Below, piece by piece: positions 2,110 through 64,000 of a stretch of 64,000 nucleotides of DNA. The stretch is from a virus. Every line of letters begins with the position of its first letter. Within the stretch, counting starts at the first letter, position 1. The position numbers and the translations under genes are program-made. The stretch covers positions 1 through 64,000 of IMG/VR virus record IMGVR_UViG_3300000976_000011; one strand, given 5' to 3'. The notes beneath the pieces were generated by a model that made no database searches, was not told the DNA's origin, and was given only the letters and a program-made list of their open reading frames with translations.

Positions 2110-2110
2110 A

Positions 2111-2296
2111 TTAAATTGGATTAGCAAACCATGAAGCTAGCGCAGGAGTTTTCACTTTTTCTTTCATACCCATTGACCAAGATAAATCAGCTCTAGCCTC
2201 TCTTATAGCTTCTTCCTCAGTTTCAGCTCTATATACACCAAAGAACTCTCCATCTTGACTATTTCTAGGCACATATCCTACTTCATATTTGTTCAT
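2111..2296 (-). CDS. hypothetical protein
   Basis: Packed ORF. Confidence 0.55.
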   Translation of the reverse strand: MNKYEVGYVPRNSQDGEFFGVYRAETEEEAIREARADLSWSMGMKEKVKTPALASWFANPI

Positions 2297-3061: not shown

Positions 3062-3065
3062 TTTT

Positions 3066-3272
3066 TATAAATATAAATAAAGGGTTAAAATAATGATTCA
3101 ATACGGCTATATCTATATAACAACTAATTTAATAAATGGAAAGCATTAACGGCGACGAAAAGGTCCATACAAAATGAAATCTTACAAATTATCTCCTTAT
3201 TTGAAAACTTTAGATGAAAATGTTATAGGAAAAACCTATAAAGATATAGGCTTTAGTTTCTTAACTTTATAG
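3066..3272 (+). pseudogene. internally deleted GIY-YIG homing endonuclease remnant with late promoter
   Basis: TATAAATA; ATG3093 gives MIQYGYIYITTNLINGKH*, then a fragment SPYLKTLDENVIGKTYKDIGFSF matching the C-termini of the intact endonucleases. Confidence 0.8.
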
Positions 3273-3536
3273 GTTTTTCCAAGTATAAACAGAATTACCT
3301 GTTTTAAAGATTACTTCATTGCCATTATCTTCTAAAATTTCACTTACTGGAGTAGTCAGCCACCAATCTTGAGCTGAATAAGTTCTAGCTAAAAAAGAAC
3401 CAACTCTCATTGATTGCCCAAGAATAGGTCTCGAATTATCAGTAATTATATGTTGACCATCTTCTTTCCATTCTATTGATTCTGACATTAATCCCGAATC
3501 GCCTGCTCCGTCTCCTGATCTTACTAAACTATACAT
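3267..3536 (-). CDS. hypothetical protein
   Basis: Packed ORF; conserved-looking WWLTTPVSEI..FKTGNSVY. Confidence 0.7.
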   Translation of the reverse strand: MYSLVRSGDGAGDSGLMSESIEWKEDGQHIITDNSRPILGQSMRVGSFLARTYSAQDWWLTTPVSEILEDNGNEVIFKTGNSVYTWKNL

Positions 3537-3909
3537 TTTTAAAATTCCAATTTAGGTTAAATAATTCTGCGCATGATTTTAACTGTTTAATTAAACAGTT
3601 AAAATATATAAATTTGTGTGATGAAGATGTGTCATGGCATTGTTGAAGCGAAACAATTAAAGATTCATGTACTTTAGATAACTTAAGTCTTTTAACTACT
3701 CCTGACCAACATATGCCGAAGGCATCTTCATCAACCAATTTAGCTTGTTCATCAGTTAAAAATATACCAGCCGCACAAGCTAAATTATCGCTGGTTCTAT
3801 AAAAACATCTTGTTCCTATATTGCTAGGTACTTTTTGTTTAATTAAATGAGAAGCAACAGCATCAAAGACTTCTTGTTCTGATATGTTGGTATAATCAAT
3901 TACATTCAT
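3529..3909 (-). CDS. hypothetical protein
   Basis: QEVFDAVASHL..CFYR..CAAG..LQQCHD, typical of a phage family. Confidence 0.75.
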   Translation of the reverse strand: MNVIDYTNISEQEVFDAVASHLIKQKVPSNIGTRCFYRTSDNLACAAGIFLTDEQAKLVDEDAFGICWSGVVKRLKLSKVHESLIVSLQQCHDTSSSHKFIYFNCLIKQLKSCAELFNLNWNFKNV

Positions 3910-4115
3910 AATATTTTTCTCGCTTGGCCTTTATCGCCGAATTGTAAACATAATGTTGATATGTCATCTATATCATTATTATAATAAACCATCCAAGGAT
4001 CTCTATCAGGCCTTTTCATATAAATTATTTTAGCTGTTTGGCCTGAAGGATGAACTATTGAGTCACCTTCAAATAATTCATTACCATTATAACATAAATA
4101 AGGAGACTTTTTCAT
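3906..4115 (-). CDS. hypothetical protein
   Basis: ATGA overlaps. Confidence 0.6.
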   Translation of the reverse strand: MKKSPYLCYNGNELFEGDSIVHPSGQTAKIIYMKRPDRDPWMVYYNNDIDDISTLCLQFGDKGQARKIL

Positions 4116-4336
4116 AATTTACATTTTTTTAACCATATGTCTAAAGATTCTCTATCATTTTCATTATAAATTTTAAATATTTTACAATCACTATTTTTCC
4201 AAAATTCTATTCTCATATATGGATCATATCTTTTAAACGGTAATTTATTATCTACAGCTTTTAGTAATTTTGTAATATCATCATATAAACCGATGTTTAT
4301 AGAATCTTCATAATATTCTTCTATTAATATAAACAT
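4112..4336 (-). CDS. hypothetical protein
   Basis: Start trimmed to exclude tRNA-His. Confidence 0.55.
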   Translation of the reverse strand: MFILIEEYYEDSINIGLYDDITKLLKAVDNKLPFKRYDPYMRIEFWKNSDCKIFKIYNENDRESLDIWLKKCKL

Positions 4337-4356
4337 AATTTTCTCATATTCAAATT

Positions 4357-4435
4357 TGGGGTGTATGACGGGAATCGAACCCGCATCATCCCGAGTCACA
4401 GTCGGGAGTCTTATTCCTATTAGACCACATACACC
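4357..4435 (-). tRNA. tRNA-His(GTG)
   Basis: Cloverleaf; G-1:C73; loop CTGTGAC; CCA. Confidence 0.95.
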
Positions 4436-4439
4436 ATAA

Positions 4440-4778
4440 TTAATTCCATAATGCGTTAAAATACTCGCCGAAATATTTAAGACCTCTGGATTTTCTTTCC
4501 CAATCGTAATTTACATAATCAATACTTCCATCGAAATCATCGATAACAAAAGAAAGACCGAAAATCATATCATTTAAAATTTCTTGCCATTTTTCTGGTG
4601 TATCACAAAAATCATCGCAAGGGAAACATCCTGGATCAATCGAAAATTCTTTAAGCCTTGGCAAAGTAAATTTAGCGATTGTATAATCTAAACTCCAGAG
4701 TTCTGTATCATCCCAGCCTCTAGTCCATCTTTGGTAAAAGTGTTTGATATCTCTTTTTATAATTGCGATACTTTTCAT
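4440..4778 (-). CDS. hypothetical protein
   Basis: ELWSLDYTIAKFTLPRL..W..IL.DMIF..GL.YFG.YF..LW phage family pattern. Confidence 0.8.
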   Translation of the reverse strand: MKSIAIIKRDIKHFYQRWTRGWDDTELWSLDYTIAKFTLPRLKEFSIDPGCFPCDDFCDTPEKWQEILNDMIFGLSFVIDDFDGSIDYVNYDWERKSRGLKYFGEYFNALWN

Positions 4779-4782
4779 ATAA

Positions 4783-5046
4783 TTAAGGTTTCTTTGCTAA
4801 TACTTGTATAGATTTAATAATCTCCGCGTTTAACTCATCTCTAATCTCTTGAACTATTGTCTTTTTAAACCATTTTTCTTGTTTAGAATAATGAACCTTA
4901 AACTTATGACTTAGATTTTGATATCGGCACCTTTCTTCCTCAGTTTTAGCTGTTGGGCTAGGAGGTCTAATAATTACTGGCTCATAACTCACTTTATGAG
5001 GATACATAAATTGTGCGTCATTAACTACTACAAAATCATCACTCAT
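4783..5046 (-). CDS. hypothetical protein
   Basis: ORF between tRNAs with AGGT SD. Confidence 0.6.
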   Translation of the reverse strand: MSDDFVVVNDAQFMYPHKVSYEPVIIRPPSPTAKTEEERCRYQNLSHKFKVHYSKQEKWFKKTIVQEIRDELNAEIIKSIQVLAKKP

Positions 5047-5062
5047 AATATACCTATTAAGT

Positions 5063-5149
5063 TGGCGGAAAGTAAAGGAATCGAACCCTCATCAGTTTCC
5101 CGATGGCGACGGTTTTCAAGACCGTTTGTCCCCATGGACGCTACCTTCC
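5063..5149 (-). tRNA. tRNA-Ser(TGA)
   Basis: Class II cloverleaf; loop CTTGAAA; long V arm; G73; CCA. Confidence 0.95.
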
Positions 5150-5151
5150 TT

Positions 5152-5328
5152 TTATTCTTTTATAACTCTTGCTATGGAATTAATAGTCGTAACAGCAATA
5201 GAGCTATCTTCTAATAACTGATCTTCGGACCACCTATAAGCTAAATCAATCATACCTTCTATTCTTCTGAGTTTGTCTTTATTAATAGATGCCTCTAAAT
5301 CACTAGTATCGAAATCTTCAATTGCCAT
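5152..5328 (-). CDS. small hypothetical protein (58 aa, MAIEDFDTSD...)
   Basis: Open frame filling the gap between two tRNAs. Confidence 0.55.
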   Translation of the reverse strand: MAIEDFDTSDLEASINKDKLRRIEGMIDLAYRWSEDQLLEDSSIAVTTINSIARVIKE

Positions 5329-5343
5329 AATCTCTTTTAATGT

Positions 5344-5432
5344 TGGAGGAAGAGTTGATATTCGAAATCAATCCCATAAATGAGACACTTGGTTTAGCAA
5401 ACCAGCCCTGAGACCTCTCAGGTTACTCTTCC
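5344..5432 (-). tRNA. tRNA-Ser(GCT)
   Basis: Class II cloverleaf; loop TTGCTAA; CCA. Confidence 0.92.
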
Positions 5433-5441
5433 TTATTACTA

Positions 5442-6047
5442 TTATTTTGTAGTTTTCCAGTATCCAAGTGTATCAAATACTAATTTTAATTCAGATTTAA
5501 ATTCTTCTTGTAAATCGACGATCACAGATTGTATTCTATCATTACTTTCTAGAAAATCTCTTAATTCTAATTTACTGCTTAATGAAGATTTTTTAATTTC
5601 ACCTATATCATTAGTATATTTAAATTTTATTTTATCAATTTTAAGAATTTTTTTACATAGCTTATAAACAGATGAAAAATCATTTAAGCGCTTGTTACCG
5701 TAATAAGTATCTACAGGATCATTTTCTCTTAATACTACCTTTGTTATTTTTACGTTTTTTAATGATCCATAATCTATAGATAAATCTAAAGATTCTAAAC
5801 GATCTGATAACATATTATGAAATTTCGATAAAATATCTATGTAGGTTGGAACACCTTCTTCATTTGAAAGTCTGATTATTTCATCTTCCAAAGATTTGAT
5901 TTTAACTTTTTTTGGATAGTCACAATATCCACTACCCGTCTCAACTTTTCGATAGAAACCTTTATCAAATTTATAGAATACACCTTTAGGTAGACTCTTT
6001 TTAATACTTTTTTCTAAAGCTTTCTTATCTGATTTAAAGAAAAACAT
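5442..6047 (-). CDS. hypothetical protein
   Basis: 201-aa ORF with GAGG SD. Confidence 0.7.
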   Translation of the reverse strand: MFFFKSDKKALEKSIKKSLPKGVFYKFDKGFYRKVETGSGYCDYPKKVKIKSLEDEIIRLSNEEGVPTYIDILSKFHNMLSDRLESLDLSIDYGSLKNVKITKVVLRENDPVDTYYGNKRLNDFSSVYKLCKKILKIDKIKFKYTNDIGEIKKSSLSSKLELRDFLESNDRIQSVIVDLQEEFKSELKLVFDTLGYWKTTK

Positions 6048-6102
6048 TTTTATATCCTCTTAATTTTACATAACCAAACTATAATATAATAGATACTAAC
6101 TA

Positions 6103-7284
6103 TTATCCCTTAATACACATTACTTGTTTTAAAGTATGAACGACTTCAACTAAATCATCTTGTGCTTCCATAACTTTATCAATATCTTTATAGGCTGATG
6201 GTGTCTCATCAATAACATCGTAATCTATTCGACATTCAACACCTTCTACAGATTTCTTATGTTCAGACATACTAACTAATTTCTTAGCTTTAGATCTAGA
6301 CATAACTCTTCCAGCTCCATGCGAACACGAATTAAAAGATTCTTTATTGCCTAAACCTCTTACAATAAATGATTTGGCACCCATAGAACCAGGAATAATT
6401 CCCAATTGACCTTCTTTAGCACTTACAGCGCCTTTACGGGTCACCCAAACATTTTCTTTGTAGTGATTTTCTTTTTCTACATAGTTATGATGACAGTCGA
6501 TGGCATGTTGTTCCCATCTAAAATCTTTAGTATGCTTATGTAAAATATCTAAAGCTTTAGTCATCATAATATCTCTATTAAATTTGGCAAATGTCTGAGC
6601 CCAATCAATAGATCTAATATAGTCATCGAAGTGTTTAGATCCTTCTGGTAAATAAGAAAGATCTTCATCTGGAATATTACAAAACCAGCGCTTCATTTCT
6701 TCTTTCGCCTTAGAGATAAAATATCTACCAATAGCGTTACCAACTCCTCTAGAACCAGAGTGTAGCATAACCCAGACGAAGTCTTTTTCATCTAAACAAA
6801 TTTCAACAAAGTGATTACCGCCACCTAAAGTACCTAAATGTTTAACATTATTAGTATCTTTAATAGGAGCTATCTCACAAAGTTCATCAAATTCTTTTGC
6901 TAGATAATCTGACCAAATCTTTTCAGTTCCGCCATCTAGTTTATCATGTTTTCCAAAGCCTACTGGAATAACAGCTTCCATACCTAATCTAATATTCTTT
7001 AGATCATCAGGAAGATCTTTTGCCTTTAATGATGTTTTAACAGCCTGCATTCCACAACCTAAGTCAACACCTACCGTAGCTGGAATAATAGCTTTCTTAG
7101 TAGCTAAAACTGTTCCAATTGCGCATCCTTTTCCTAAGTGAGCATCTGGCATCGAAGCAATCCACTTATGGATGAATGGCATACTGGCTAAATTATTTAA
7201 TTGATCTAGGGTGTTATCGTCAATATGAACACCTTCATGCCAAGTTTTAATTGAAGCCTGATTGCCTTTATTTATTGCTTTCAT
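6103..7284 (-). CDS. rtcB: RtcB RNA 3'-phosphate/5'-OH ligase
   Basis: MPDAH, GVDLGCGM, GTLGGGNHFVE, HSGSRG, HHNY, TRKGA, PGSMG, SHGAGR, DETPSAYK. Confidence 0.97.
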   Translation of the reverse strand: MKAINKGNQASIKTWHEGVHIDDNTLDQLNNLASMPFIHKWIASMPDAHLGKGCAIGTVLATKKAIIPATVGVDLGCGMQAVKTSLKAKDLPDDLKNIRLGMEAVIPVGFGKHDKLDGGTEKIWSDYLAKEFDELCEIAPIKDTNNVKHLGTLGGGNHFVEICLDEKDFVWVMLHSGSRGVGNAIGRYFISKAKEEMKRWFCNIPDEDLSYLPEGSKHFDDYIRSIDWAQTFAKFNRDIMMTKALDILHKHTKDFRWEQHAIDCHHNYVEKENHYKENVWVTRKGAVSAKEGQLGIIPGSMGAKSFIVRGLGNKESFNSCSHGAGRVMSRSKAKKLVSMSEHKKSVEGVECRIDYDVIDETPSAYKDIDKVMEAQDDLVEVVHTLKQVMCIKG

Positions 7285-7310
7285 TATAAAATTCCTATTA
7301 AATTGTTTGG

Positions 7311-7402
7311 TGGTGTTCCTACTAGGATTCGAACCTAGACTACTCCCTAATCTGGGGATACGATCTTATAAAAATCGGGTGCTGCCGTTACACTATAGGA
7401 AC
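7311..7402 (-). tRNA. tRNA-Ile(TAT) with long variable arm
   Basis: Acceptor GTTCCTA/TAGGAAC; anticodon arm CGATT-TTTATAA-GATCG; extra arm TCCC-CAGATTA-GGGA; canonical T arm; CCA. Confidence 0.85.
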
Positions 7403-7780
7403 TTATTTTCTTTTTCTTAGGTTGGAAGTTCCTGTTGTATGACCTCCAACCCTCTGTTTATTTTTAGCTTCTTCTAATCCATATTTTTCTACAGATCTTT
7501 CCCAAATAGTTTTAAATGTACCAAATTTTTTACCATCTTCTACAGTATTCTCTCTATATGTCGCCCAATAAAGATGCTTAGGGTTTGAACAATTGCCATT
7601 GCCACAAGCATGAGCCAAAACTGCAGGCCTTTTAGGAATATTGGTGTCTAAATATTCAGCTAAAACTCCTCTGTGATGCGTACTTAGGCCGCCTCGCTCT
7701 AAACAAACTTCTGAAAGATCTATATGAGATTGCCTTTCTTTCTTAGTATGGCTTTTTATATATTCTTCTACTATTATCAT
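7403..7780 (-). CDS. HNH (His-Me finger) endonuclease-like protein inside tRNA cluster
   Basis: LAHACGNGNCSNPKHLYWATYRENTVED motif; start trimmed to exclude tRNA-Leu. Confidence 0.8.
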   Translation of the reverse strand: MIIVEEYIKSHTKKERQSHIDLSEVCLERGGLSTHHRGVLAEYLDTNIPKRPAVLAHACGNGNCSNPKHLYWATYRENTVEDGKKFGTFKTIWERSVEKYGLEEAKNKQRVGGHTTGTSNLRKRK

Positions 7781-7792
7781 TTGTATATAATT

Positions 7793-7869
7793 TGGTAGCG
7801 CCACCCGGATTCGAACCGGGAACATTCGGGTTTTAAGCCCGACACCTCTGCCAATTGGATCATGGCGCC
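7793..7869 (-). tRNA. tRNA-Leu(TAA), short variable loop
   Basis: Cloverleaf; loop CTTAAAA; A73; CCA. Confidence 0.9.
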
Positions 7870-7875
7870 ATATAT

Positions 7876-7915
7876 TGGGGTCCTAGGAGGCGATCGACCT
7901 CTTTCAACTAGTACC
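7876..7915 (-). ncRNA. minihelix tRNA-like RNA (acceptor plus T-like arm, CCA)
   Basis: GGTACTAG/CTAGGACC stem, GAGG-TCGATCG-CCTC arm, ends in CCA. Confidence 0.55.
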
Positions 7916-7920
7916 ATATT

Positions 7921-8004
7921 TAAATAATGTGGTAGGATTTGAACCTACACTAGAATTACTTGATAGTTATCTACCCTTGCTCTGCCTCACAAGACTGCAC
8001 ATTA
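7921..8004 (-). ncRNA. degenerate tRNA-like element
   Basis: TAATGTG/CACATTA acceptor and GTAGG-TTCAAAT-CCTAC T arm; no clear anticodon, no CCA. Confidence 0.55.
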
Positions 8005-8008
8005 ATTC

Positions 8009-8085
8009 TGGAAGCACAAGTAGGATTCGAACCTAACAACCTACGCAGTCAAAGTGCGTTGCTCTACCAGTTGAGCTATTGTGCT
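8009..8085 (-). tRNA. tRNA-Gln(TTG)
   Basis: Cloverleaf; loop CTTTGAC; CCA. Confidence 0.92.
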
Positions 8086-8410: not shown

Positions 8411-8440
8411 AAAAAAAGCCTACTAATTTAGTAGGCTTTT
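8411..8440 (-). terminator. intrinsic terminator of left attenuator
   Basis: AAAAGCCTACTA-AAT-TAGTAGGC followed by T7. Confidence 0.9.
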
Positions 8441-8474
8441 AAAAAGATATTTGCTATACTTATTACTAATCTAA

Positions 8475-8543
8475 TTAAAACCCCTCGATTCCTGAACTTA
8501 TTTGTCCATGCTGAGATAATAACGATTGTAATATGTTTTTCAT
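8475..8543 (-). CDS. putative attenuator leader peptide MKNILQSLLSQHGQISSGIEGF (left tRNA cluster)
   Basis: ATG 5 nt after TATAAATA; codons 4-18 all cognate to the downstream tRNAs; followed by terminator. Confidence 0.8.
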   Translation of the reverse strand: MKNILQSLLSQHGQISSGIEGF

Positions 8544-8548
8544 ATATC

Positions 8549-8556
8549 TATTTATA
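8549..8556 (-). promoter_or_regulatory. T4-type late promoter
   Basis: TATAAATA; TATAAATAGATATATG is identical to 57897-57912. Confidence 0.85.
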
Positions 8557-55521: not shown

Positions 55522-56519
55522 TGTACACCGATATAGAAGAACAATATTCTCAATTATTAAATCATGTAAAATTATATGGTCATCAAGTAGATAATGATCG
55601 AACAGGAGTCGGCACTAAAAAAGATTTTGGTCATTTAATTAAATTAGATGTAGAAGAAGTAGGGTTCCCAATTCTTACAAGTAAATTTGTACATTTTAAA
55701 TCTATTGTAGTTGAACTATTATGGATGTTAAATGGCGATGATAATACCGATTATCTTAAAGAGCACGGTGTTACTATCTGGGATGAGTGGGCAGATGATA
55801 ATGGAGATCTAAATGGCGTATATGGAAAACAGTGGCGACATTGGCATAGAAATGTTTACAAGCGAGAAGTAAAATCTTTGGAGGATCTATGTGATATGTT
55901 CGGTCGCCCTGAAGAATTTACTGGCCACACTGCTATTTTTAAAAATGGTCAAACTTGGAACTATTTTAATAAAGAAAATTTCTTTAGATGGGATCAATCT
56001 ATAGATCAAGTAGAACAGCTGATTAATACAATTAAAACCAATCCAAATGATAGGCGACAAATAGTTACAGCTTGGAATGTAGATGCATTAGACAGTATGA
56101 ATTTACCACCTTGTCATCATACCTGGCAAACATTTGTTAGAGGTGACACTTTAGATTTAATGATGCATCAGAGAAGCTGTGATATGTTTCTAGGTGTACC
56201 TTTTAATCTAACAGCATATTCTCTTTTATTGTGCATTTTGGCTAAAATAACTGGATTAAAACCTGGAAAATTTACATGGACGGGTGGCGACTGTCATGTA
56301 TACTCTAACCATGTTAATCAAGTTGATAAGTATTTAGATAATTATTATACCAATGCTTCATCAAATGGCGGTATTCAATATCCAACTCTTTGCTTTAATG
56401 ATGATATTGATTTTTCAAGCTTACAATCATTTTTAGATACAACATTGGATAATCCTGAAAGAATATTTTTAATGGATTATAAACATATGGGTTCTATTAA
56501 AGCGGATGTGGCAGTGTGA
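55521..56519 (+). CDS. td: thymidylate synthase (ThyA type)
   Basis: DRTGVGT, ELLW, IWDEW, YGKQWR, LPPCH, QRSCD.FLGVPFN, DCHVY.NH. Confidence 0.97.
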   Translation: MYTDIEEQYSQLLNHVKLYGHQVDNDRTGVGTKKDFGHLIKLDVEEVGFPILTSKFVHFKSIVVELLWMLNGDDNTDYLKEHGVTIWDEWADDNGDLNGVYGKQWRHWHRNVYKREVKSLEDLCDMFGRPEEFTGHTAIFKNGQTWNYFNKENFFRWDQSIDQVEQLINTIKTNPNDRRQIVTAWNVDALDSMNLPPCHHTWQTFVRGDTLDLMMHQRSCDMFLGVPFNLTAYSLLLCILAKITGLKPGKFTWTGGDCHVYSNHVNQVDKYLDNYYTNASSNGGIQYPTLCFNDDIDFSSLQSFLDTTLDNPERIFLMDYKHMGSIKADVAV

Positions 56520-56785
56520 TGAAAGATAAATTAGGAAGACATTTAGATGCAAATGATTTGATTGTATATTCTACATCATCAAGAGATTATAATAATTTTA
56601 AATTTGCTAAAATATTAGAAGTAGAAGAGAAATCTTTAACCCTTATTCCATTGGTTGAAAATTGGAATAAGGGTTTTCGAATCGGTAAAAAGTGTAAAAT
56701 ATCTCATTCTGAAAGAATTCTTAAGATTGATGACGCTACATCAGTTTTAGCTAATATGAAGTTAGAATCACTTACTCAAATTTAA
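56516..56785 (+). CDS. hypothetical protein
   Basis: KD.LG..L...D.IVY motif; GTGA overlap. Confidence 0.65.
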   Translation: MMKDKLGRHLDANDLIVYSTSSRDYNNFKFAKILEVEEKSLTLIPLVENWNKGFRIGKKCKISHSERILKIDDATSVLANMKLESLTQI

Positions 56786-56861
56786 AATCAAATCCCAAGT
56801 CCTTAAAAGATAAACCTTTAGGGAAAACTTTTAAGGACTTGGGATTTGATTTTAAATTTGA
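56776..56861. repeat. perfect 34-bp inverted repeat (18-nt spacer) derived from an endonuclease C-terminus
   Basis: TCAAATTTAAAATCAAATCCCAAGTCCTTAAAAG and its exact reverse complement. Confidence 0.95.
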
Positions 56862-56892
56862 TCCATATAAGTTTTTATAAAGGAGAATTTTT

Positions 56893-57339
56893 TTGACTAC
56901 AATTTGCTGGGACGGAGAAACATTGGCAACAGATTCTTTATTAAATTCTGATTCAGGAGTTAGCCAAGTTGAAACTAAAAAATTATTTAAAGTAAATAGA
57001 TATTTTGATTTCATAAATGTGAAATTTGAAGATAAAGGATTCTATCTGGCTGGAGCTGGAAATTACACTGAAATTTTAACTATTTTAGATACGTTAAATT
57101 TTTCAAGTATTGAAGAATCAGAATTTTTTATATTAGATATCAATTTAACTAAGTGTTATTATATTGATAGTTATGGTATAATGGAAATTAAAGAATCTAT
57201 GGCTATTGGCTCAGGAAGTCAATATGCCATGGGAGCGATGTTGGCAGGATCAAACGCAGCCGAAGCTGTTAAGATCGCGTCACAATTAGATACTGAAACA
57301 GGTGGAAATGTACAATATATAAAGGTTACATATTCTTAA
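56893..57339 (+). CDS. proteasome-beta/HslV-like Ntn hydrolase
   Basis: N-terminal MTT, LATDS, AGAG, AIGSGSQYAMGA, D..TGG; AGGAG SD with TTG start. Confidence 0.85.
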   Translation: MTTICWDGETLATDSLLNSDSGVSQVETKKLFKVNRYFDFINVKFEDKGFYLAGAGNYTEILTILDTLNFSSIEESEFFILDINLTKCYYIDSYGIMEIKESMAIGSGSQYAMGAMLAGSNAAEAVKIASQLDTETGGNVQYIKVTYS

Positions 57340-57350
57340 TAAAATAGTTA

Positions 57351-57393
57351 TTTACTTTTATACCCATTAATATATAATACTCATCAAGTTAAA
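57351..57393 (+). promoter_or_regulatory. sigma70-type early promoter
   Basis: TTTACT...TATAAT followed by ATCAAGTTAAA. Confidence 0.7.
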
Positions 57394-57399
57394 CAAATT

Positions 57400-57576
57400 A
57401 TGAAAACAACAAACGAAATTTTAAATGATACTTTAGAAGATTTACAAGAAGCATTAGTTTTAGCAGGCGGTAAATTTTTCCGTAGAGAAGAATTGTTAAA
57501 TATGCCAGTAGATGAATTATTTGCTATGTGTATTTCTAATAAAATTAAATTAAAAATTAAATTTATTTCAAAATAA
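57400..57576 (+). CDS. small hypothetical protein (58 aa)
   Basis: ORF between two early promoters. Confidence 0.55.
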   Translation: MKTTNEILNDTLEDLQEALVLAGGKFFRREELLNMPVDELFAMCISNKIKLKIKFISK

Positions 57577-57577
57577 T

Positions 57578-57622
57578 GTTTACATTGTGATTTAAATAGT
57601 ATATAATGTATTCATCAGTTAG
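57578..57622 (+). promoter_or_regulatory. sigma70-type early promoter
   Basis: GTTTACA-17 nt-TATAAT followed by ATCAGTTAG. Confidence 0.85.
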
Positions 57623-57650
57623 ATAAATAAATTTAACTAAACAGAATTAT

Positions 57651-57698
57651 GCCGTAGTTGTACGAATGTAGGTGGTCTGAATCCACCCTACGGCGCCA
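57651..57698 (+). ncRNA. 48-nt minihelix tRNA-like RNA
   Basis: GCCGTAG/CTACGGC acceptor, GGTGG-TCTGAAT-CCACC T arm, G73, CCA; 13-nt connector only. Confidence 0.75.
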
Positions 57699-57714
57699 AT
57701 TTTGATATTATAAT

Positions 57715-57789
57715 GCGGAGAAGTATTGGTTATACAAACTGAAGATTAATATTTCAGTTATCAGGTTCGATTCCTAGGCTCCGTGAACA
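57715..57789 (+). ncRNA. degenerate tRNA-like element
   Basis: GCGGAG/CTCCGT, D-like arm, 8-bp central stem, GGTTCGATTCC; no CCA. Confidence 0.55.
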
Positions 57790-57830
57790 TTTGTGAGTTA
57801 ATAGGCAAGGTTATAATATTAAATTTTTCT

Positions 57831-57889
57831 GATTAATTAGGTTCAAATTTGATTAAGAACCAACTGAGGTCACCTAATTAGTCTTTTTT
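57831..57889 (+). terminator. terminator-like stem with large loop
   Basis: GATTAATTAGGT/ACCTAATTAGTC followed by T6. Confidence 0.5.
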
Positions 57890-57896
57890 AAAGTTT

Positions 57897-57904
57897 TATA
57901 AATA
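57897..57904 (+). promoter_or_regulatory. T4-type late promoter
   Basis: TATAAATA. Confidence 0.85.
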
Positions 57905-57909
57905 GATAT

Positions 57910-58014
57910 ATGAATTATACAAATACAATCAGACCGACGAATATCGCTACTAAAGAACTGACAGTAGTGGAATATCGCGCGAATCCTATCTTTGATAAGG
58001 AGTCTGGAAGTTAA
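57910..58014 (+). CDS. putative attenuator leader peptide MNYTNTIRPTNIATKELTVVEYRANPIFDKESGS (right tRNA cluster)
   Basis: Leaderless position; codons 2-31 all cognate to downstream tRNAs; stop codon overlaps antiterminator. Confidence 0.85.
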   Translation: MNYTNTIRPTNIATKELTVVEYRANPIFDKESGS

Positions 58015-58072
58015 GTAGGTAAATACAATAGTATTTTAAGAGCCTACTTATTAATTTAAGTAGGCTTTTTTT
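58012..58072 (+). terminator. mutually exclusive antiterminator (58012-58050) and terminator (58041-58072)
   Basis: TAAGTAGGT pairs with GCCTACTTA; terminator AGCCTACTTA/TAAGTAGGCT followed by T run. Confidence 0.88.
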
Positions 58073-58085
58073 AACACAAAATAAT

Positions 58086-58161
58086 GGTCACGTAGCTTAG
58101 CGGCAAAAGCACTCCCCTGTCAAGGGAGTAGACGAGAGTTCGAATCTCTTCGTGACCGCCA
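58086..58161 (+). tRNA. tRNA-Asp(GTC)
   Basis: Cloverleaf; CTGTCAA; CCA. Confidence 0.96.
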
Positions 58162-58165
58162 AAAT

Positions 58166-58240
58166 GTACTTGTAGCTGAGATGGATTAGCGTTAGGTTGA
58201 AGCCCTAAAGACGGAGGATCGTTACCTCCCGAGTACACCA
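58166..58240 (+). tRNA. tRNA-Phe(GAA)
   Basis: Cloverleaf; TTGAAGC; CCA. Confidence 0.93.
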
Positions 58241-58248
58241 AGTTTCAT

Positions 58249-58324
58249 TCCTTAGAAGTTCACCAGGTAGAACGCCGGACTGTTAATCCGGATGTTGGGA
58301 GTTCGAGTCTCTCCTAGGGAGCCA
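58249..58324 (+). tRNA. tRNA-Asn(GTT)
   Basis: Cloverleaf; CTGTTAA; CCA. Confidence 0.95.
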
Positions 58325-58329
58325 ATTTT

Positions 58330-58420
58330 ATTGGTAGTTATAGTACTGCACTAGCTCAGAAAGCACGCGAGGCAACGTATACCTCTTGCATGATCGGGAA
58401 AAACTTGAGTAACTATCAAT
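58330..58420 (+). ncRNA. unidentified multibranch RNA
   Basis: ATTGGTAGTTA/TAACTATCAAT closing stem with about four internal hairpins. Confidence 0.6.
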
Positions 58421-58422
58421 AC

Positions 58423-58497
58423 AGTCGATTAGTTTAATGGCTAAAACCCCGAACTGATAATTCGGAGAAGAAGGATCGAGACCTTCATCGACTACCA
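58423..58497 (+). tRNA. tRNA-Ile(GAT)
   Basis: Cloverleaf; CTGATAA; CCA. Confidence 0.94.
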
Positions 58498-58535
58498 CTT
58501 TTAACTTTTTATAAATAATAATAAAGTTAAAAGTT

Positions 58536-59222
58536 ATGAACTATAAAAAGATATACGATTCTCTAATTGAAAGAGGATCGAATAGAAAATTAGAGTGCTA
58601 TAAAGAATCTCATCATATCCTACCTAGATGTATAGGAGGAACAGATGAAAAAGATAATTTAGTAGAATTAACCCCAGAAGAGCATTATTTAGCTCACCAA
58701 TTGTTAGTTAAAATTTATCCAGACGAAGCTAAGTTAGTTTATGCTGCTAATATGATGATTCCTAATAGATCGTCTAATAAAATGTATGGTTGGTTAAGAA
58801 GGAGATTCTCTAAAGAAATATCTATTAATCAAAAAGGTAAAGGTAATTCTCAAGCTAACACTTTTTGGGTAAGTAATATAAATGAAAGAAAAAACCTGAA
58901 ACTTAAAAAGGGTGATGATATTCCTTTAAATTACTTACCAGGTAGAAATCTTTGGAAAGAATTAGATAGGCAGTATGAATTAGAAAGAAACAAAGAAATA
59001 AAATTACAAAATAATATAGATAAAGCTAAAAAATACTATTTACTTTTTTGTGATTCTAATTATAATTCTTTAAAATCATTTGGAGAATCAAACATGTATC
59101 CGCATTCGTATATAAGTTTGTATAAGCTCTGGAAAAAATATTTGCCGGAATATAATGAAATATCCGGTCAAGGTAAAAGCATTAAAAAGATAATGGGGTG
59201 TAGCTCAGAGGCAGAGCAGTAG
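58536..59222 (+). CDS. HNH homing endonuclease in tRNA cluster
   Basis: ESHHILPRC.GG.D..NLV.LTPEEHYLAHQLL; TATAAATA at 58510; 3' end overlaps tRNA-Lys. Confidence 0.92.
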   Translation: MNYKKIYDSLIERGSNRKLECYKESHHILPRCIGGTDEKDNLVELTPEEHYLAHQLLVKIYPDEAKLVYAANMMIPNRSSNKMYGWLRRRFSKEISINQKGKGNSQANTFWVSNINERKNLKLKKGDDIPLNYLPGRNLWKELDRQYELERNKEIKLQNNIDKAKKYYLLFCDSNYNSLKSFGESNMYPHSYISLYKLWKKYLPEYNEISGQGKSIKKIMGCSSEAEQ

Positions 59223-59268
59223 ACTTTTAATCTATTGGACGGGATTTCGAAATTCCCTACCCCAACCA
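59194..59268 (+). tRNA. tRNA-Lys(TTT)
   Basis: Cloverleaf; CTTTTAA; CCA. Confidence 0.94.
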
Positions 59269-59278
59269 AATATTAAAC

Positions 59279-59368
59279 GCGTAGACTGAGCATTGGCGAG
59301 CTCAAGTGGCTGTAACCCACCCGCATATAAATAAGTCTGTATAGGTTCAACTCCTATTCTGCGCACCA
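59279..59368 (+). tRNA. tRNA-Tyr(GTA)
   Basis: Class II; CTGTAAC; CCA. Confidence 0.92.
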
Positions 59369-59376
59369 CAATATAA

Positions 59377-59452
59377 GCACTTGAAGCATTTATTGGATGA
59401 TGCCCGGTTTTGTAATCCGGTGAATACGGCTCGATTCCGTACTAGTGCTCCA
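59377..59452 (+). tRNA. tRNA-Thr(TGT)
   Basis: Cloverleaf; TTTGTAA; CCA. Confidence 0.88.
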
Positions 59453-59455
59453 AAA

Positions 59456-59576
59456 TTTAGTAATCGCTTGAATGTGATAATGAATTAATATTAAACATGT
59501 CAATGATATTATGAATTTATTGCTTGGATAAAGCACTAGGCAACTAGAGCTGATGGTTCGAATCCATCTTACTAAA
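59456..59576 (+). ncRNA. enlarged tRNA-like RNA
   Basis: TTTAGTAA/TTACTAAA stem, GATGG-TTCGAAT-CCATC T arm, extra hairpins. Confidence 0.65.
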
Positions 59577-59589
59577 TAAAAATTTGCAA

Positions 59590-59720
59590 ATAGCTCGAAC
59601 TGAACCAGAAATGGTCGGACAAGATACCCGATAAGTGGTCGTGGCAGTGCCGGTAAAGTCTTAAATCAGGAAGTCATTGATTTTGAATGACTAATTCATT
59701 CTATCTAGAGAATGAATTTT
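59590..59720 (+). ncRNA. unidentified structured RNA
   Basis: GC-rich; ACCA-GAAA-TGGT, AGTCATT/AATGACT and AATTCATTCT/AGAATGAATT hairpins. Confidence 0.5.
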
Positions 59721-59722
59721 AT

Positions 59723-59797
59723 GAATCGGAAGGCAAATGGTTAGCCATCACACTTTCAATGTGACGTTAGCGGGTTCGAACCCCGTCCGGTTCTCCA
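59723..59797 (+). tRNA. tRNA-Glu(TTC)
   Basis: Cloverleaf; CTTTCAA; CCA. Confidence 0.93.
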
Positions 59798-59805
59798 AAT
59801 TAAAT

Positions 59806-59912
59806 GTGATCTAAAGCCTATCATTTGAAGCTCAAACTTAGATTGGAGAATAAGGGTCTAAGGTGCTCTTTAAATACCAATATCACCTGAATGACGATTC
59901 AGGAATGATCAC
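59806..59912 (+). ncRNA. unidentified multibranch RNA
   Basis: GTGATC/GATCAC closure; CTTAGATT/GGTCTAAG and CCTGAAT/ATTCAGG hairpins. Confidence 0.55.
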
Positions 59913-59923
59913 TTTAGCCTTAT

Positions 59924-60001
59924 CTGTGTGTAGCTCAGTCAGGTCAGAGTCCTCGCCTTGGAAGCGAGAAGCCGTTGGTTCGAATCCAACCACGCAGACC
60001 A
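59924..60001 (+). tRNA. tRNA-Pro(TGG)
   Basis: Cloverleaf; CTTGGAA; CCA. Confidence 0.96.
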
Positions 60002-60008
60002 AATTTAT

Positions 60009-60092
60009 GCCTCTGTGGTGAAATGGAAAACACACTGGTTTTAGATGCCAGCGACGAAAGTCTTGTCGGTTCGAATCCGACCAGGGGTACCA
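60009..60092 (+). tRNA. tRNA-Leu(TAG)
   Basis: Class II; TTTAGAT; CCA. Confidence 0.95.
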
Positions 60093-60201
60093 AATTATTA
60101 TAAATATAATTGGATATTAATTTAATTAAGAGAAATTTATACCATTATCTGATGAATCAATTGTTTTCTTCACAGATAAACCTGGTTTAGTATAAACTTA
60201 C

Positions 60202-60273
60202 GCCCAAGGCAATTGGATGCACACCGGCCTACGAAGCTGGTTCTTATAGGTTCGAGTCCTATCTTGGGTGCCA
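60202..60273 (+). tRNA. tRNA-Arg(ACG), 5' D stem apparently truncated
   Basis: CTACGAA loop, T arm and CCA intact; about 4 nt missing after acceptor stem. Confidence 0.75.
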
Positions 60274-60280
60274 AATTAAT

Positions 60281-60349
60281 GGGGTTGCTAGATGGGCTAG
60301 ACTTGACATTTGCAATGTCGATGGCAGGGATCGTTACCCTGTAGCTCCA
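60281..60349 (+). tRNA. tRNA-Ala(TGC), reduced D arm, CCA not encoded
   Basis: G3:U70 pair; TTTGCAA loop; T arm. Confidence 0.75.
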
Positions 60350-60393
60350 AAAATTCTTATAAATATTATTGATTAAAATTTGAGATAAAATAC

Positions 60394-60687
60394 ATGAAAA
60401 CTAAATCAATAACTTATTCAACTTTATTAGCGCTTGCTTTAACAACTTCTACTACATTATCCGCTCCTTCTTTAGAGCGATGCGCAGATGTAATTAAAGG
60501 TGGGAAAAATTCTTGCGCGGTTAAATCTCTTGGTATTTCTTGCCAGGGTCAAGCGACTGACGACATAAATGCTCCAGAAGGAACTAAACCTAGAAAATTG
60601 GCTAAAGCTTGTAATAAAATTGCTGATCAAAATGATCATAAAATCACTGGTGGTAGATTGGTTGATAGATACGGCGAATCAATATGA
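60394..60687 (+). CDS. DUF2282 (bufferin-precursor-like) secreted Cys-rich protein
   Basis: Signal peptide, then ERC..V.K.GKNSC......SC.GQA....C.KI...GG; TATAAATA at 60358. Confidence 0.6.
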   Translation: MKTKSITYSTLLALALTTSTTLSAPSLERCADVIKGGKNSCAVKSLGISCQGQATDDINAPEGTKPRKLAKACNKIADQNDHKITGGRLVDRYGESI

Positions 60688-60923
60688 TAAACAAGCAGAC
60701 ATTTTATGATTTAGCCGATATATTTGACAGATTTAGAATATTTCCTATTTTAATGATGCTATGTTATGGATATTTTGTGTTTGATGTGTTTAATTGGATT
60801 AAATCATTAGAAACTATATCTTTAGAAGCAGCGGGTATATTTTCCACTGTTACTGGCGTAGCTGGATTTGTGTTCAATTTTTATACCAACTTATTAAGTA
60901 GGGAAGTAAAGAATGATAAATAA
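60684..60923 (+). CDS. small two-TM membrane protein (holin-like)
   Basis: RIFP..MM..Y, W...L, AG..S..TG. Confidence 0.6.
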   Translation: MINKQTFYDLADIFDRFRIFPILMMLCYGYFVFDVFNWIKSLETISLEAAGIFSTVTGVAGFVFNFYTNLLSREVKNDK

Positions 60924-61077
60924 AGGTGCAGTGTAACAATTATTAACTCAACAACGGTTAATATCAGAATAAAAGAACTAGAGAATTTAATAACTAATTG
61001 TAAGAATTATAAAAAGTTAAAAATTCTTGAGAAAGATCTAACATCCTTTAGATGTATAAAAATATTATTGGATAATA

Positions 61078-61404
61078 ATGGAAAAAGTACTTAGAGAGTG
61101 GCTAAACGAAGAAGATTCTTCAGATAATGGTTGGTTTAAATTCGAAATGGCTGCTGACTGTGAAGAAGTATATTGTGATTTAACTATAGCTGATTGTTCG
61201 AGATCTGTTCATTTATCTATTACTTGGGCTGAAGATGATTCTAAGTATCGAAAGAATTTAGAACAGGCTAAAGCTAAAATGGATAAACTTATCGAAGGTT
61301 TAGTAAGTTTTAGAAATGATTTCGATAAATTTCACGAACATTTCTTAGAAGAAAAAGATAAAGCTATTAAAAAACGAGAAGAAGCTAAAAATAAAGAAAA
61401 ATAA
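61078..61404 (+). CDS. hypothetical protein
   Basis: REWLN...IADC.RSV.L..K.D.L phage family pattern. Confidence 0.75.
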   Translation: MEKVLREWLNEEDSSDNGWFKFEMAADCEEVYCDLTIADCSRSVHLSITWAEDDSKYRKNLEQAKAKMDKLIEGLVSFRNDFDKFHEHFLEEKDKAIKKREEAKNKEK

Positions 61405-61406
61405 TC

Positions 61407-61451
61407 GTTTACAATATTATCCGGTAGTATATAATTATTCTATCAGTTAAA
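61407..61451 (+). promoter_or_regulatory. sigma70-type early promoter
   Basis: GTTTACA...TATAAT followed by ATCAGTTAAA. Confidence 0.85.
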
Positions 61452-61458
61452 CAAATAT

Positions 61459-61544
61459 ACCCTTTGTTCCTGACATCGGTCTTCTAAACCGATCCTTTAA
61501 TGTTAGGTGGTAAGTGTGAGGTTCGATTCCTCCAGAGGGTGCCA
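61459..61544 (+). tRNA. non-canonical tRNA-Arg(TCT)-like RNA with rearranged D region
   Basis: Acceptor ACCCTTT(G)/(C)AGAGGGT, TCGGT-CTTCTAA-ACCGA arm, T loop TTCGATT, G73, CCA. Confidence 0.75.
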
Positions 61545-61548
61545 TAAT

Positions 61549-61712
61549 ACTCGGGAGCACAGTGGATGACCGTTATCATCACGACTGAGGTATTAGTACA
61601 GTTCCAAAATTTGTACTCTAAGTCTATGATTCTTAGGTTAAAAATCATCTTTTAACAATAGGTAAATTGTGAGCTAAGATTGATAGCTGGTTATCGAAAC
61701 GTAAATTCGAGT
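61549..61712 (+). ncRNA. unidentified multibranch RNA (about 165 nt)
   Basis: ACTCGGG/TTCGAGT closure with five or more hairpins. Confidence 0.6.
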
Positions 61713-61759
61713 TAGGAAAAGTAGTGTCAACGTTCCTTGCCTAAATCTAGAACAAATAT

Positions 61760-61836
61760 CGCGGTTGTAGGAAGGGTGGTCCCTACTGAGGCTCATAACC
61801 TTTAGTTACCTAGTTCGATTCTAGCCTCCGCTACCA
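61760..61836 (+). tRNA. tRNA-Met(CAT), initiator-like, imperfect stems
   Basis: C1 mismatch; CTCATAA loop; CCA. Confidence 0.7.
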
Positions 61837-61837
61837 A

Positions 61838-61914
61838 CGAGATAAGGCGAACAAGGTGGACGCACTAGATTCATAACCTAGTTATGGCTGATTCGATTTC
61901 AGCTATCTCGACCA
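61838..61914 (+). tRNA. tRNA-Met/Ile2(CAT)
   Basis: Cloverleaf; TTCATAA; CCA. Confidence 0.9.
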
Positions 61915-61923
61915 AAACTACAT

Positions 61924-62042
61924 ACACGGGTCTGGTACTGTTAGGTTCTTCGAAGGCCGACCAGAGGACATCGCGTAATAGGATAATATACTAGTACCTT
62001 GCTTCCTATTGATTAGGGGTTCGATTCCTCTTCTGTGTACCA
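61924..62042 (+). ncRNA. 119-nt tRNA-like RNA
   Basis: ACACGGG/TCTGTGT acceptor, AGGGG-TTCGATT-CCTCT T arm, CCA; two long arms. Confidence 0.75.
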
Positions 62043-62049
62043 TTATTAG

Positions 62050-62164
62050 CGTCGGAAAGCATTTGCAAAGATCAATTAAGAAGAGAGGGCAGTTACCCGA
62101 GATCATAGGTTGATGCGCCAGGTAGCTCCTGAGAAGTTAGGTTCGAATCCAACTCCGACGGCCA
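62050..62164 (+). ncRNA. 115-nt tRNA-like RNA
   Basis: CGTCGGA/TCCGACG acceptor, GGTTCGAATCC, CCA; non-cloverleaf interior. Confidence 0.75.
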
Positions 62165-62166
62165 TT

Positions 62167-62394
62167 ATGAAATATAAGTATGAAGTTAAAATAGTTCCTG
62201 AACTTCCTAATGGAATGGAACCCGCTTGCAGAGTTTTATCAGAAACTGAAGTATTATTTTTGATAGATATATCTTATAGAAAGGATAAAACTGAGAAAGA
62301 GATTGTTTCGAATCTGATGCAATTTACTAAAGGTTTTGTTAATCCTGCTTTAATTGTAAAAGTATTAAGAAATTATCAAAGGAATTTATTATGA
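62167..62394 (+). CDS. hypothetical protein
   Basis: Start trimmed to exclude the ncRNA. Confidence 0.6.
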   Translation: MKYKYEVKIVPELPNGMEPACRVLSETEVLFLIDISYRKDKTEKEIVSNLMQFTKGFVNPALIVKVLRNYQRNLL

Positions 62395-62705
62395 AAAAGA
62401 TTTTTATTTTATCCCTGATTATTTTATCAGGATGTGTAGAACCAAGTTTTAGATTTATACATACTAAAGCTAAAGTTTCAGAACAAGGTATTTGTATAGA
62501 AGACGAATGCTCATATAAAATAAAAACTGAATTAGGTGAAAATGATTTTATAAATATAAGAAGTCCCGCTTCGGTTGGTCAAACTGTTTATAAGATCTGT
62601 AGAAGTAAAAAGAATAAAATATATAATTGTGGTTGGTACGTAGAAAACGACCTAAGATATATTAATTTAGAAGAAAAACCAAGCTCGATTAGCTCAGTCA
62701 GGTAG
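62391..62705 (+). CDS. lipoprotein
   Basis: LSGC lipobox. Confidence 0.7.
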   Translation: MKKIFILSLIILSGCVEPSFRFIHTKAKVSEQGICIEDECSYKIKTELGENDFINIRSPASVGQTVYKICRSKKNKIYNCGWYVENDLRYINLEEKPSSISSVR

Positions 62706-62760
62706 AGCTCTGTCCTTACAAGTCAGGTAAGCAATGGTTCGAATCCATTATCGAGTACCA
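62683..62760 (+). tRNA. tRNA-Val(TAC)
   Basis: Cloverleaf; CTTACAA; CCA. Confidence 0.93.
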
Positions 62761-62780
62761 ATTTTTACAATGAGTATATT

Positions 62781-63080
62781 ATGTTCAAATTCTTCAAGAA
62801 GAAACCAAAATATCCCACCAAAAATAATCCTACCACTTTTGAAATACATAGTGGATGGGGAGATAATATCAGTTGGTTAAATACCGAACAATTTAATAAT
62901 TATACGGAAGATACCATCTTTAAAGTTTATGGTCATCTACCATTTGAATTTCCAGAAGTAGGCGATCTACTCGAAGGATATTTTGAATCAGGTGAAGTAA
63001 TGTTTAAATTTATAAAGGTTCAAAGAAAATCTGATCCTAGAGATATGTTTTTCGCAGAGGTTGTATTACATGAAGGTTAA
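62781..63080 (+). CDS. hypothetical protein
   Basis: GWGD.I, P.VGD, DPRDMFFA motifs. Confidence 0.7.
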   Translation: MFKFFKKKPKYPTKNNPTTFEIHSGWGDNISWLNTEQFNNYTEDTIFKVYGHLPFEFPEVGDLLEGYFESGEVMFKFIKVQRKSDPRDMFFAEVVLHEG

Positions 63081-63291
63081 AACTCTATATTCTGAATTAG
63101 AGATAATTCATAAAGGTGGACAAGAGCTAGTTGAGAGTTCAGTTGATGCTACGTTCCAAACGCGATTTGGCATTTGTTTATCTTTATTAAAGCCAATGGA
63201 ATTAGAAAGAACCAAATTCTTACAAGATATAATTGATGGAAAAATTAAAGGAGCTGAAGCTAGAAGAATAGCAATTCAGAAATTTACATAA
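63070..63291 (+). CDS. hypothetical protein
   Basis: Packed ORF. Confidence 0.55.
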   Translation: MKVKTLYSELEIIHKGGQELVESSVDATFQTRFGICLSLLKPMELERTKFLQDIIDGKIKGAEARRIAIQKFT

Positions 63292-63737
63292 TGAATAGTA
63301 TTCCTTTAGTCGCTTATAGCATTAATAATATGTATTTCATGGGAATTCAAGCTGGAATTCAAGCATATCATAGTTGTATAGAATTAGGTCAATTTTGCCA
63401 TAAACTAGGACCAGGAAACGAAAACCGATCTATTGGTAAATTACACTTTGACTTTCATGGTATTTATTCAGATTGGGCAGATAATCATAAAAGTGTATCT
63501 ATTCTTAATGGCGGTACTAGAAACAATCTTGAAGAACTTGCTAGTATTATAGAAAGATCATCATTTCCATCTAAAAGGTTTTATGAAAGGGATTGTTCTG
63601 AAGATGCATTTAGTAGTATCACGGTTGTATGTCCTAATGTCAGAGACATTTTGAAAAGAAAATATTTACACAAATTTATATCTAATGAAGATTATTGTAT
63701 GTTTGAACATTTAGTTTCATTGAGGGTCGCAACTTGA
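63291..63737 (+). CDS. PTH2-like peptidyl-tRNA hydrolase family protein
   Basis: GIQAGIQA.H, W...HK....LNGG, F.E.D....S.I.V. Confidence 0.65.
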   Translation: MNSIPLVAYSINNMYFMGIQAGIQAYHSCIELGQFCHKLGPGNENRSIGKLHFDFHGIYSDWADNHKSVSILNGGTRNNLEELASIIERSSFPSKRFYERDCSEDAFSSITVVCPNVRDILKRKYLHKFISNEDYCMFEHLVSLRVAT

Positions 63738-64000
63738 AAAATCTCGAAGAATTAATGGATTATTTAAGCAGAATATCAAATAACTGGACTTTTAGTTTTT
63801 CCAATAATAAATATACTATATCAGCAAATAAAAATTCAAAAAAAATAATTATATCATCTACAACTTTGTATGATGGTTTAAATGAAATAATAGATAAAAT
63901 TGAAAACTAAAGAAAGATTATTAGAGATAGTATTTTTAATAGCTTTAGTTTATGTATCTTATCAAATTGGAAGTATTAATAATTTAGTTATAAATCATAT

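Follow-up and report, generated by a model that had tools for sequence, protein, structure and literature searches.

Leader-peptide attenuation is best known from the amino-acid operons of enterobacteria, such as those preceded by trpL, hisL, pheL and leuL, and from the multivalent leaders thrL and ilvL, which sense several amino acids. The phage locus described here shares with these attenuators a short ORF rich in codons linked to the product, an intrinsic terminator, an antiterminator mutually exclusive with it and a predicted read-out by ribosome position; its terminator is also more stable than the antiterminator, hence control would be kinetic. It departs from them in that the targets are tRNA genes and not biosynthetic enzymes, in that up to 15 tRNA species are represented by one or a few codons each and not by runs of a single codon, and in that one of its cassettes is three-stranded, without a 1:2 protector. 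In addition, its start is probably leaderless and placed at a phage late promoter, and two complementary putative sensors would partition the code. T-box riboswitches, which precede aminoacyl-tRNA synthetase and amino-acid genes of Firmicutes, likewise convert the state of a tRNA into a choice between terminator and antiterminator in a leader. However, in a T-box a single uncharged tRNA is recognized directly, with no translation involved, by a specifier codon together with the T-box sequence, whereas the triplets found here constitute a translatable ORF. Phage tRNA genes are usually viewed as static aids to codon usage or as decoys against tRNA-targeting defences. Bacteriophage T4 has the same TATAAATA late-promoter motif and clustered tRNA genes that are transcribed as precursors, and we know of no description of leader-peptide control of its tRNAs. 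Full-text literature searches and the genome paper of Caulobacter phage phiCbK yielded no published account of such control of a tRNA array.

The window, that is, the whole stretch of DNA analysed, comprises the first 64 kb (64,000 nucleotides) of IMG/VR record IMGVR_UViG_3300000976_000011, which is 141,675 bp long and has a G+C content of 30.7%. The genome encodes a gp43-like DNA polymerase with 37% identity to its counterparts in cyanomyophages and in Methylophilales phage Melnitz, as well as T4-type helicases, an SbcCD-like nuclease and a ribonucleotide reductase. Judged by gp43 and these other core genes, the phage is a T4-like myovirus, though a divergent one. The collections searched contained no visible close relative. 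Comparison of the region with 50,697 phage records (Megablast and blastn) gave no match, IMG/VR searches that took the HslV-like and thymidylate-synthase genes nearby as anchors returned only distant loci without comparable arrays, and a pattern search in IMG/VR for the three arms of the regulatory hairpins had a single match, in an unrelated repeat region. A metagenome scan with an RtcB alignment was dominated by bacterial RtcB and did not find a close relative; phage Melnitz, also followed as a lead, proved to be a false trail. The tRNA genes lie in two clusters, one running leftward from 8085 to 1822 and the other rightward from 58086.

The cassette in front of the right cluster begins on the plus strand with a putative T4-type late promoter box, TATAAATA (57897-57904), located 5 nt 5' of the ATG of an ORF at 57910-58014. 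This ORF has 34 sense codons followed by TAA (58012-58014), lacks a Shine-Dalgarno sequence, is co-oriented with the tRNA genes and ends 72 nt upstream of tRNA-Asp. The layout of promoter, 5-nt spacer and 34-codon ORF proposed from a sequence-only reading was thus confirmed in all its coordinates, and so was its proposal that the stop codon lies inside a 9-nt antiterminator strand competing with a terminator placed before the first tRNA. The antiterminator 5' strand, TAAGTAGGT (58012-58020), within which the stop codon lies, repeats the terminator 3' arm, TAAGTAGGC (58057-58065), in direct orientation. Both can pair with the shared strand GCCTACTTA (58042-58050), giving the antiterminator in the first case and, across a 6-nt loop, the terminator in the second; the latter is followed by T7 (58066-58072). 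The extended terminator stem has 13 bp (-17.3 kcal/mol) and the terminator ends 13 nt 5' of tRNA-Asp (58086), a gap too short for a promoter. The antiterminator (58012-58050; -12.5 kcal/mol) consists of 9 bp on which an inner hairpin of 6 bp (58021-58036) stacks from below, and this inner hairpin is a possible pause hairpin. A 9-bp complement to a terminator arm within 80 nt upstream was seen in only 0.2-0.7% of controls. Rfam models run over 57560-58100 and 56500-64000 placed no known family on the leader, including the T-box (RF00230), and gave only weak chance matches, while PHROGs and Pfam had no match for the leader peptides or the small neighbouring ORFs.

In T4 the late promoter box lies at about -10 and transcription starts about 6 nt downstream; such promoters depend on gp55, gp33 and the clamp. 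With this geometry the transcript of the cassette would begin at or next to the AUG and would be a leaderless mRNA, so that translation of the leader, which has no ribosome-binding site of its own, depends on a leaderless start that we infer from the spacing. The same arrangement was sought elsewhere in the genome. TATAAATA-N5-ATG opens eight long ORFs of 63-276 aa, for example at 15655 and 23698 of the window and at 64444, 80031, 81554, 84404 and 111457 of the genome. Although the total number of TATAAATA sites (51) is about that predicted from composition, an ATG follows at exactly N5 in 11 of them, versus about one expected. The same 19-mer start also opens ordinary long genes in 28 AT-rich marine IMG/VR contigs. 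These data indicate that the promoter-N5-ATG module marks real gene starts, both here and in other marine phages, and the pattern suggests that phages of this group often make leaderless late mRNAs. A late promoter followed by an ORF of 20-40 codons occurs genome-wide only in the two tRNA cassettes.

The right cluster (58086-62760, plus strand) contains genes for Asp, Phe, Asn, Ile-GAT, Lys, Tyr, Thr, Glu, Pro, Leu-TAG, Arg-ACG, Ala, an Arg-TCT-like species, two Met and Val, with an HNH-like ORF and small ORFs lying among them. The tRNA list drawn up from the letters alone held in most of its entries: ARAGORN called 12 of the genes by default (Asp, Phe, Asn, Ile-GAT, Lys, Thr, Glu, Pro, Leu-TAG, Ala, Met and Val), and Tyr and the second Met at a relaxed threshold only. 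Two of the 15 tRNA species are atypical. Arg-ACG (60198-60273) scored 27 bits with Rfam, under the cut-off, and the Arg-TCT-like gene (61459-61544) lacks a normal D arm; both were read by eye from their acceptor, anticodon and T arms only. Two long tRNA-like elements of 117-128 nt were also seen at about 61919-62046 and 62051-62167, with 7-bp acceptor stems, GGTTCGA-type T arms and CCA, and were called by neither ARAGORN nor Rfam.

The leader of the right cassette is spelled in the codons of the cluster behind it. Codons 1-31 are all within the reading range of the right cluster and only codons 32-34 (TCT GGA AGT) are outside it. Codon usage in 136 long ORFs served as baseline, in which the right-cluster set accounts for 71.4% of usage and the left-cluster set for 24.6%. 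As had been claimed, the whole stretch from codon 2 to codon 31 can be read by the downstream tRNAs, that is, 30/30 if U34 reads A, G and U (p = 4e-5); under strict A/G wobble the count is 27/30 and still significant (p = 2e-4), and it is 28/30 without the two atypical Arg genes (p = 8e-4). The companion claim that every anticodon type of the cluster is represented was borne out too, all 14 non-Met species being present (chance 0.035). A further argument, that the exclusive use of ATC and CTG matches the anticodons GAT and TAG, stood only in part: both codons are readable, but GAT also reads ATT, and CTG is read by TAG through wobble and not through Watson-Crick pairing. When all six frames of the 141.7-kb genome were scanned, the leader was the second-longest run of right-set codons, with one longer run. 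Because right-set codons cover 71% of usage, the right leader on its own is only moderately improbable.

A paralogous cassette precedes the left cluster on the minus strand (8411-8556). It has an identical 16-mer, TATAAATAGATATATG (8556-8541), containing the promoter and start, a 22-codon ORF (8543-8475) and a terminator GCCTACT..AGTAGGC (8436-8418) with T7. The 16-mer and the terminator core are present in exactly two copies each in 141.7 kb, both directed into tRNA clusters. The left cluster (1822-8085, minus strand) encodes Gln, Leu-TAA, Ile-TAT, Ser-TGA, His and Gly-TCC and includes, at 7284-6103 on the same strand, a gene for an RtcB-type RNA ligase. The left terminator (-14.3 kcal/mol) competes with an antiterminator (-10.7 kcal/mol) that sequesters only the base of the terminator stem. 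Between terminator and cluster there are a sigma-70-like promoter and an ORF of 81 aa (8338-8093), and this promoter gives the left cluster a route independent of the attenuator. Fourteen of the 15 codons from 4 to 18 of the left leader belong to the left-cluster set (p = 3e-8), which makes it the 15-codon window richest in left-set codons in a six-frame scan of the genome. The two leaders are complementary (cassette by codon class, 30,2 / 5,15; Fisher p = 3.6e-7), and p did not rise above 7e-7 when wobble was restricted or the atypical Arg genes were left out. The existence of a second cassette with the complementary codon set disfavours both chance and an artefact of composition, and the codon match is confirmed as far above chance expectation.

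The folding of both cassettes was then studied with ribosomes masked at successive positions. At equilibrium the terminator of either cassette wins wherever the ribosome is placed, which means that any control exerted here must be kinetic; in the trp attenuator of Escherichia coli the terminator likewise beats the antiterminator at equilibrium. Co-transcriptional folding was therefore modelled on the transcript as it is before the terminator 3' arm has been made, with a masked footprint from -15 to +12 relative to the A site. In the right cassette the 5' arm of the terminator was sequestered with P = 0.93-0.98 for A-site codons 2-30, 0.87 for codon 31, 0.55 for codon 32 and about 0.3 for codons 33, 34 and the stop. 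In the left one the base of the terminator stem was sequestered with P = 0.85 for codons 2-16, 0.58 for codon 17 and 0.19 from codon 18 on. For the leader of a distantly related contig, G001, the values were 0.71 for codons 2-15 and 0.03 from codon 17 on. In silico, therefore, the switch is placed at codons 31/32 in the right leader, 17/18 in the left one and 16/17 in that of G001, in each case at the end of the cognate codons, the cognate run of the left leader ending at codon 18. This agrees with the sequence-only reading, which had suggested folding with and without a ribosome footprint as a check and had placed the last three codons, the only non-cognate ones, within a footprint of the antiterminator: in the right cassette the antiterminator is the first helix to form, and it is lost only when the A site is at codon 32 or beyond.

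The comparison with trp/his-type attenuators made in that reading needs to be narrowed. The ORF, the terminator, the exclusive antiterminator and the dependence on the footprint are all present, but the right cassette has a three-strand geometry without the trp-type 1:2 protector hairpin. Without a ribosome its antiterminator forms with P = 0.98 and, as no protector opposes it, untranslated RNA should read through. In the left cassette, when no ribosome is present, pairing between the 5' portion of the ORF and the region after the stop lowers P to 0.45, which amounts to a partial protector.

To look for the same rule in other phages, leaders upstream of tRNA arrays were compared with the content of those arrays. 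A search with RtcB led to IMG/VR contig G001, of 198,785 bp with terminal repeats, whose core proteins are 30-45% identical to those of this phage, versus 69% for RtcB. Upstream of its main array there are, in this order, a sigma-70-like promoter, TATAAATA, N5, ATG, a 24-codon leader, a terminator with T7 and tRNA-His, and both leader and terminator are unrelated in sequence to those of this phage. The array can read every codon from 2 to 17, with TTA, CTA and TTG each fitting one of three Leu tRNAs, and 13 of the 16 index codons come from the first tRNA block (His, Glu, Leu x3, Lys; p = 2e-6), a window among the top three of that genome. A second mini-ORF of the contig (about 140200-140014, minus strand; 22 codons plus a terminator), before an Asn-Gln-Met-Ser block, is enriched in Asn and Gln codons (6/21), not significantly.

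Cultured phages showed a similar arrangement of promoter, mini-ORF written in the amino acids of the downstream tRNAs and terminator. In cyanophage S-PM2 (NC_006820, 118368-118472) an unannotated ORF of 34 codons follows TATAAATA and precedes a strong terminator and a block of 13 tRNAs, of which it represents 12/13 species; the RefSeq record annotates an antisense hypothetical CDS across it. Caulobacter phage phiCbK (NC_019405) has mini-ORFs before tRNA blocks at about 49540 and 51341. In the former, 41 of 44 residues are amino acids carried by the 13 tRNAs that follow (p = 3e-12), and in the latter 19 of 31 (p = 0.002); the match of the first phiCbK mini-ORF (3/19) was not significant. The neighbourhood of the phiCbK RtcB gene is devoid of tRNAs, the arrays being located elsewhere. 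The leaders and terminators of phiCbK and S-PM2 are unrelated in sequence to the present ones and, unlike them, this phage has a complementary pair with a putative leaderless late-promoter start. When six leader/array pairs were permuted, the true pairing was the single best of the 720 permutations, i.e. 1/720 at or above the observed match, so that the covariation of leader codons with array content, which had been put forward as the way to check the idea, does hold. With a crude cassette detector, no convincing candidate was seen upstream of the arrays of T4, KVP40, S-CRM01, contig G008 and several RtcB-linked contigs; T4, KVP40 and S-CRM01 thus differ from this phage in that the scan found no mini-ORF/terminator cassette before their tRNA clusters, and the negatives in these three and in G008 indicate that the device is sporadic rather than universal.

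The observed anatomy, statistics, paralogy, covariation and mutually exclusive folds make kinetic ribosome-mediated attenuation the best reading of the locus, and we consider it probably correct. Its predictions that could be tested in silico are supported by the models, apart from the 1:2 protector of the right cassette. In terms of function, each tRNA cluster would then be gated by a leader-peptide attenuator whose input is the speed of decoding at the codons of that cluster, a model in which we have reasonable confidence. The start, translation, kinetics and trigger that we infer would be as follows. Late in infection the TATAAATA promoter would fire and give a transcript starting at or beside the AUG, a leaderless mini-mRNA. 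A ribosome following close behind the RNA polymerase would clear the 31 index codons, reach the last three codons or the stop and cover 58012-58020. With this strand covered, 58042-58050 would pair with 58057-58065 and transcription would halt at T7, 13 nt before tRNA-Asp. If the ribosome stalled on any index codon, its tRNA being scarce or damaged, 58012-58020 would stay free and pair with 58042-58050 as soon as this was made; with the antiterminator in place the terminator would come too late to form, and the polymerase would enter the tRNA genes. The left cassette would have the same role for Gln, Leu-UAA, Ile-UAU, Ser, His and Gly. Together the two cassettes would form a multi-input OR gate and a negative feedback on tRNA supply, the genetic code being split between two sensors. 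In transcripts from upstream promoters the AUG would be internal and without a ribosome-binding site, and read-through would be the default. The expected outcome would be constitutive expression early and demand-regulated expression late. A sensor of this kind cannot tell host from phage tRNAs, nor scarcity of a tRNA from its missing charging. Anticodon nucleases as the trigger are a speculation, for which the RtcB gene in the left cluster is circumstantial.

Among the alternatives, the one that survives best accepts a translated, codon-matched sensor and gives it another output, such as cleavage, stability or processing of the precursor, ribosome rescue, or the terminated RNAs of 136-163 nt as the product. 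The codon match as such requires translation and not attenuation, the terminator is favoured at equilibrium throughout, and S-PM2 does not fit the simple model, since a ribosome at its stop codon leaves the antiterminator strand uncovered. Against this, mutually exclusive helices are rightly placed in three cassettes, the footprint switch lies where the matched codons end, chance alone would rarely produce the 9-bp complement and the terminator abuts tRNA-Asp. We regard a different output as unlikely on this balance.

The second alternative treats the cassette as an insulator, in which a late promoter and a small peptide gene end in a strong terminator that shields the array, and the tRNAs are transcribed from other promoters, either early or internal. 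Sigma-70-like promoters do exist ahead of the right leader (57579-57607), at 59039 and 61408 within the right cluster and after the left terminator, and the terminators look strong. However, an insulator leaves unexplained why each leader is spelled in the codons of its own cluster and is complementary to the other, as well as the repeat of the terminator arm that overlaps the stop codon; moreover, no promoter fits between 58072 and tRNA-Asp. Insulation is, in our judgement, unlikely, and somewhat less credible than a sensor with another output.

A direct RNA-RNA recognition comparable to that of T-boxes, in which the leader would pair with anticodons without being translated, draws on the complementarity between leader triplets and array anticodons. 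Yet these triplets are contiguous and in one frame between an ATG and a stop, behind a module that starts real genes, neither a T-box nor any other Rfam family was recognized, and no known riboswitch reads 15 tRNAs, so we find this explanation very improbable. The weakest one, that the ORFs are due to chance or are small conserved protein genes without any link to tRNAs, has in its favour that short ORFs are frequent in AT-rich DNA and that the peptides match no family, but it is hardly tenable given the Fisher p = 3.6e-7, the position of both leaders at the genome-wide extremes and the obedience of the non-homologous leaders of G001, S-PM2 and phiCbK to the same rule.

Returning to ribosome-mediated attenuation, there is a broader proposal that we favour by a narrow degree: phages would have repeatedly evolved a codon-indexed tRNA homeostat, in which a leader peptide enumerates the tRNAs of the block downstream and ribosome speed gates transcription of that block. 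It would be represented here by two complementary leaders for two clusters under independent regulation, leaderless late transcripts and an OR gate for shortage of or damage to any listed tRNA, to which RtcB would add a sense-and-repair capacity against late tRNA decay or host anticodon nucleases. If it were true, phages would gauge the decoding capacity of the cell codon by codon and make tRNAs on demand, classical attenuation would reach beyond amino-acid metabolism to the translation apparatus, and the grouping of tRNA genes into blocks would have an explanation. It would also offer synthetic biology a portable natural sensor of tRNA pools. As matched leaders are present in the cultured systems phiCbK/Caulobacter and S-PM2/Synechococcus WH7803, the idea is directly testable.

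Finally, several elements were observed around both cassettes. The promoter at 57579-57607 (TTTACA-17-TATAAT), upstream of the right leader, is followed by a tRNA-like minihelix of 48 nt (57651-57698) with an acceptor stem, a T arm and GCCA. A degenerate tRNA-Leu(TAA)-like gene (57714-57786), called by ARAGORN at a relaxed threshold only, comes next, and then a weak hairpin with T6, the whole region extending to 57892. As they lie upstream of the leader, the tRNA-like RNAs of 57579-57892 would be outside attenuator control. Farther upstream, between an ORF of 89 aa and the HslV-like gene, there is a perfect 34-bp palindrome (56776-56861; hairpin of -50 kcal/mol, z = -10.9), which plant and animal miRNA models match on both strands for the mere reason that it is a long hairpin. 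Within the left cluster, TATAAATAG (1917-1895, minus strand) lies directly 5' of tRNA-Gly, with neither leader nor terminator, and would be a late promoter driving the tRNA directly; TATAAATAG also precedes tRNA-Gly in the unrelated T4-like contig G008.
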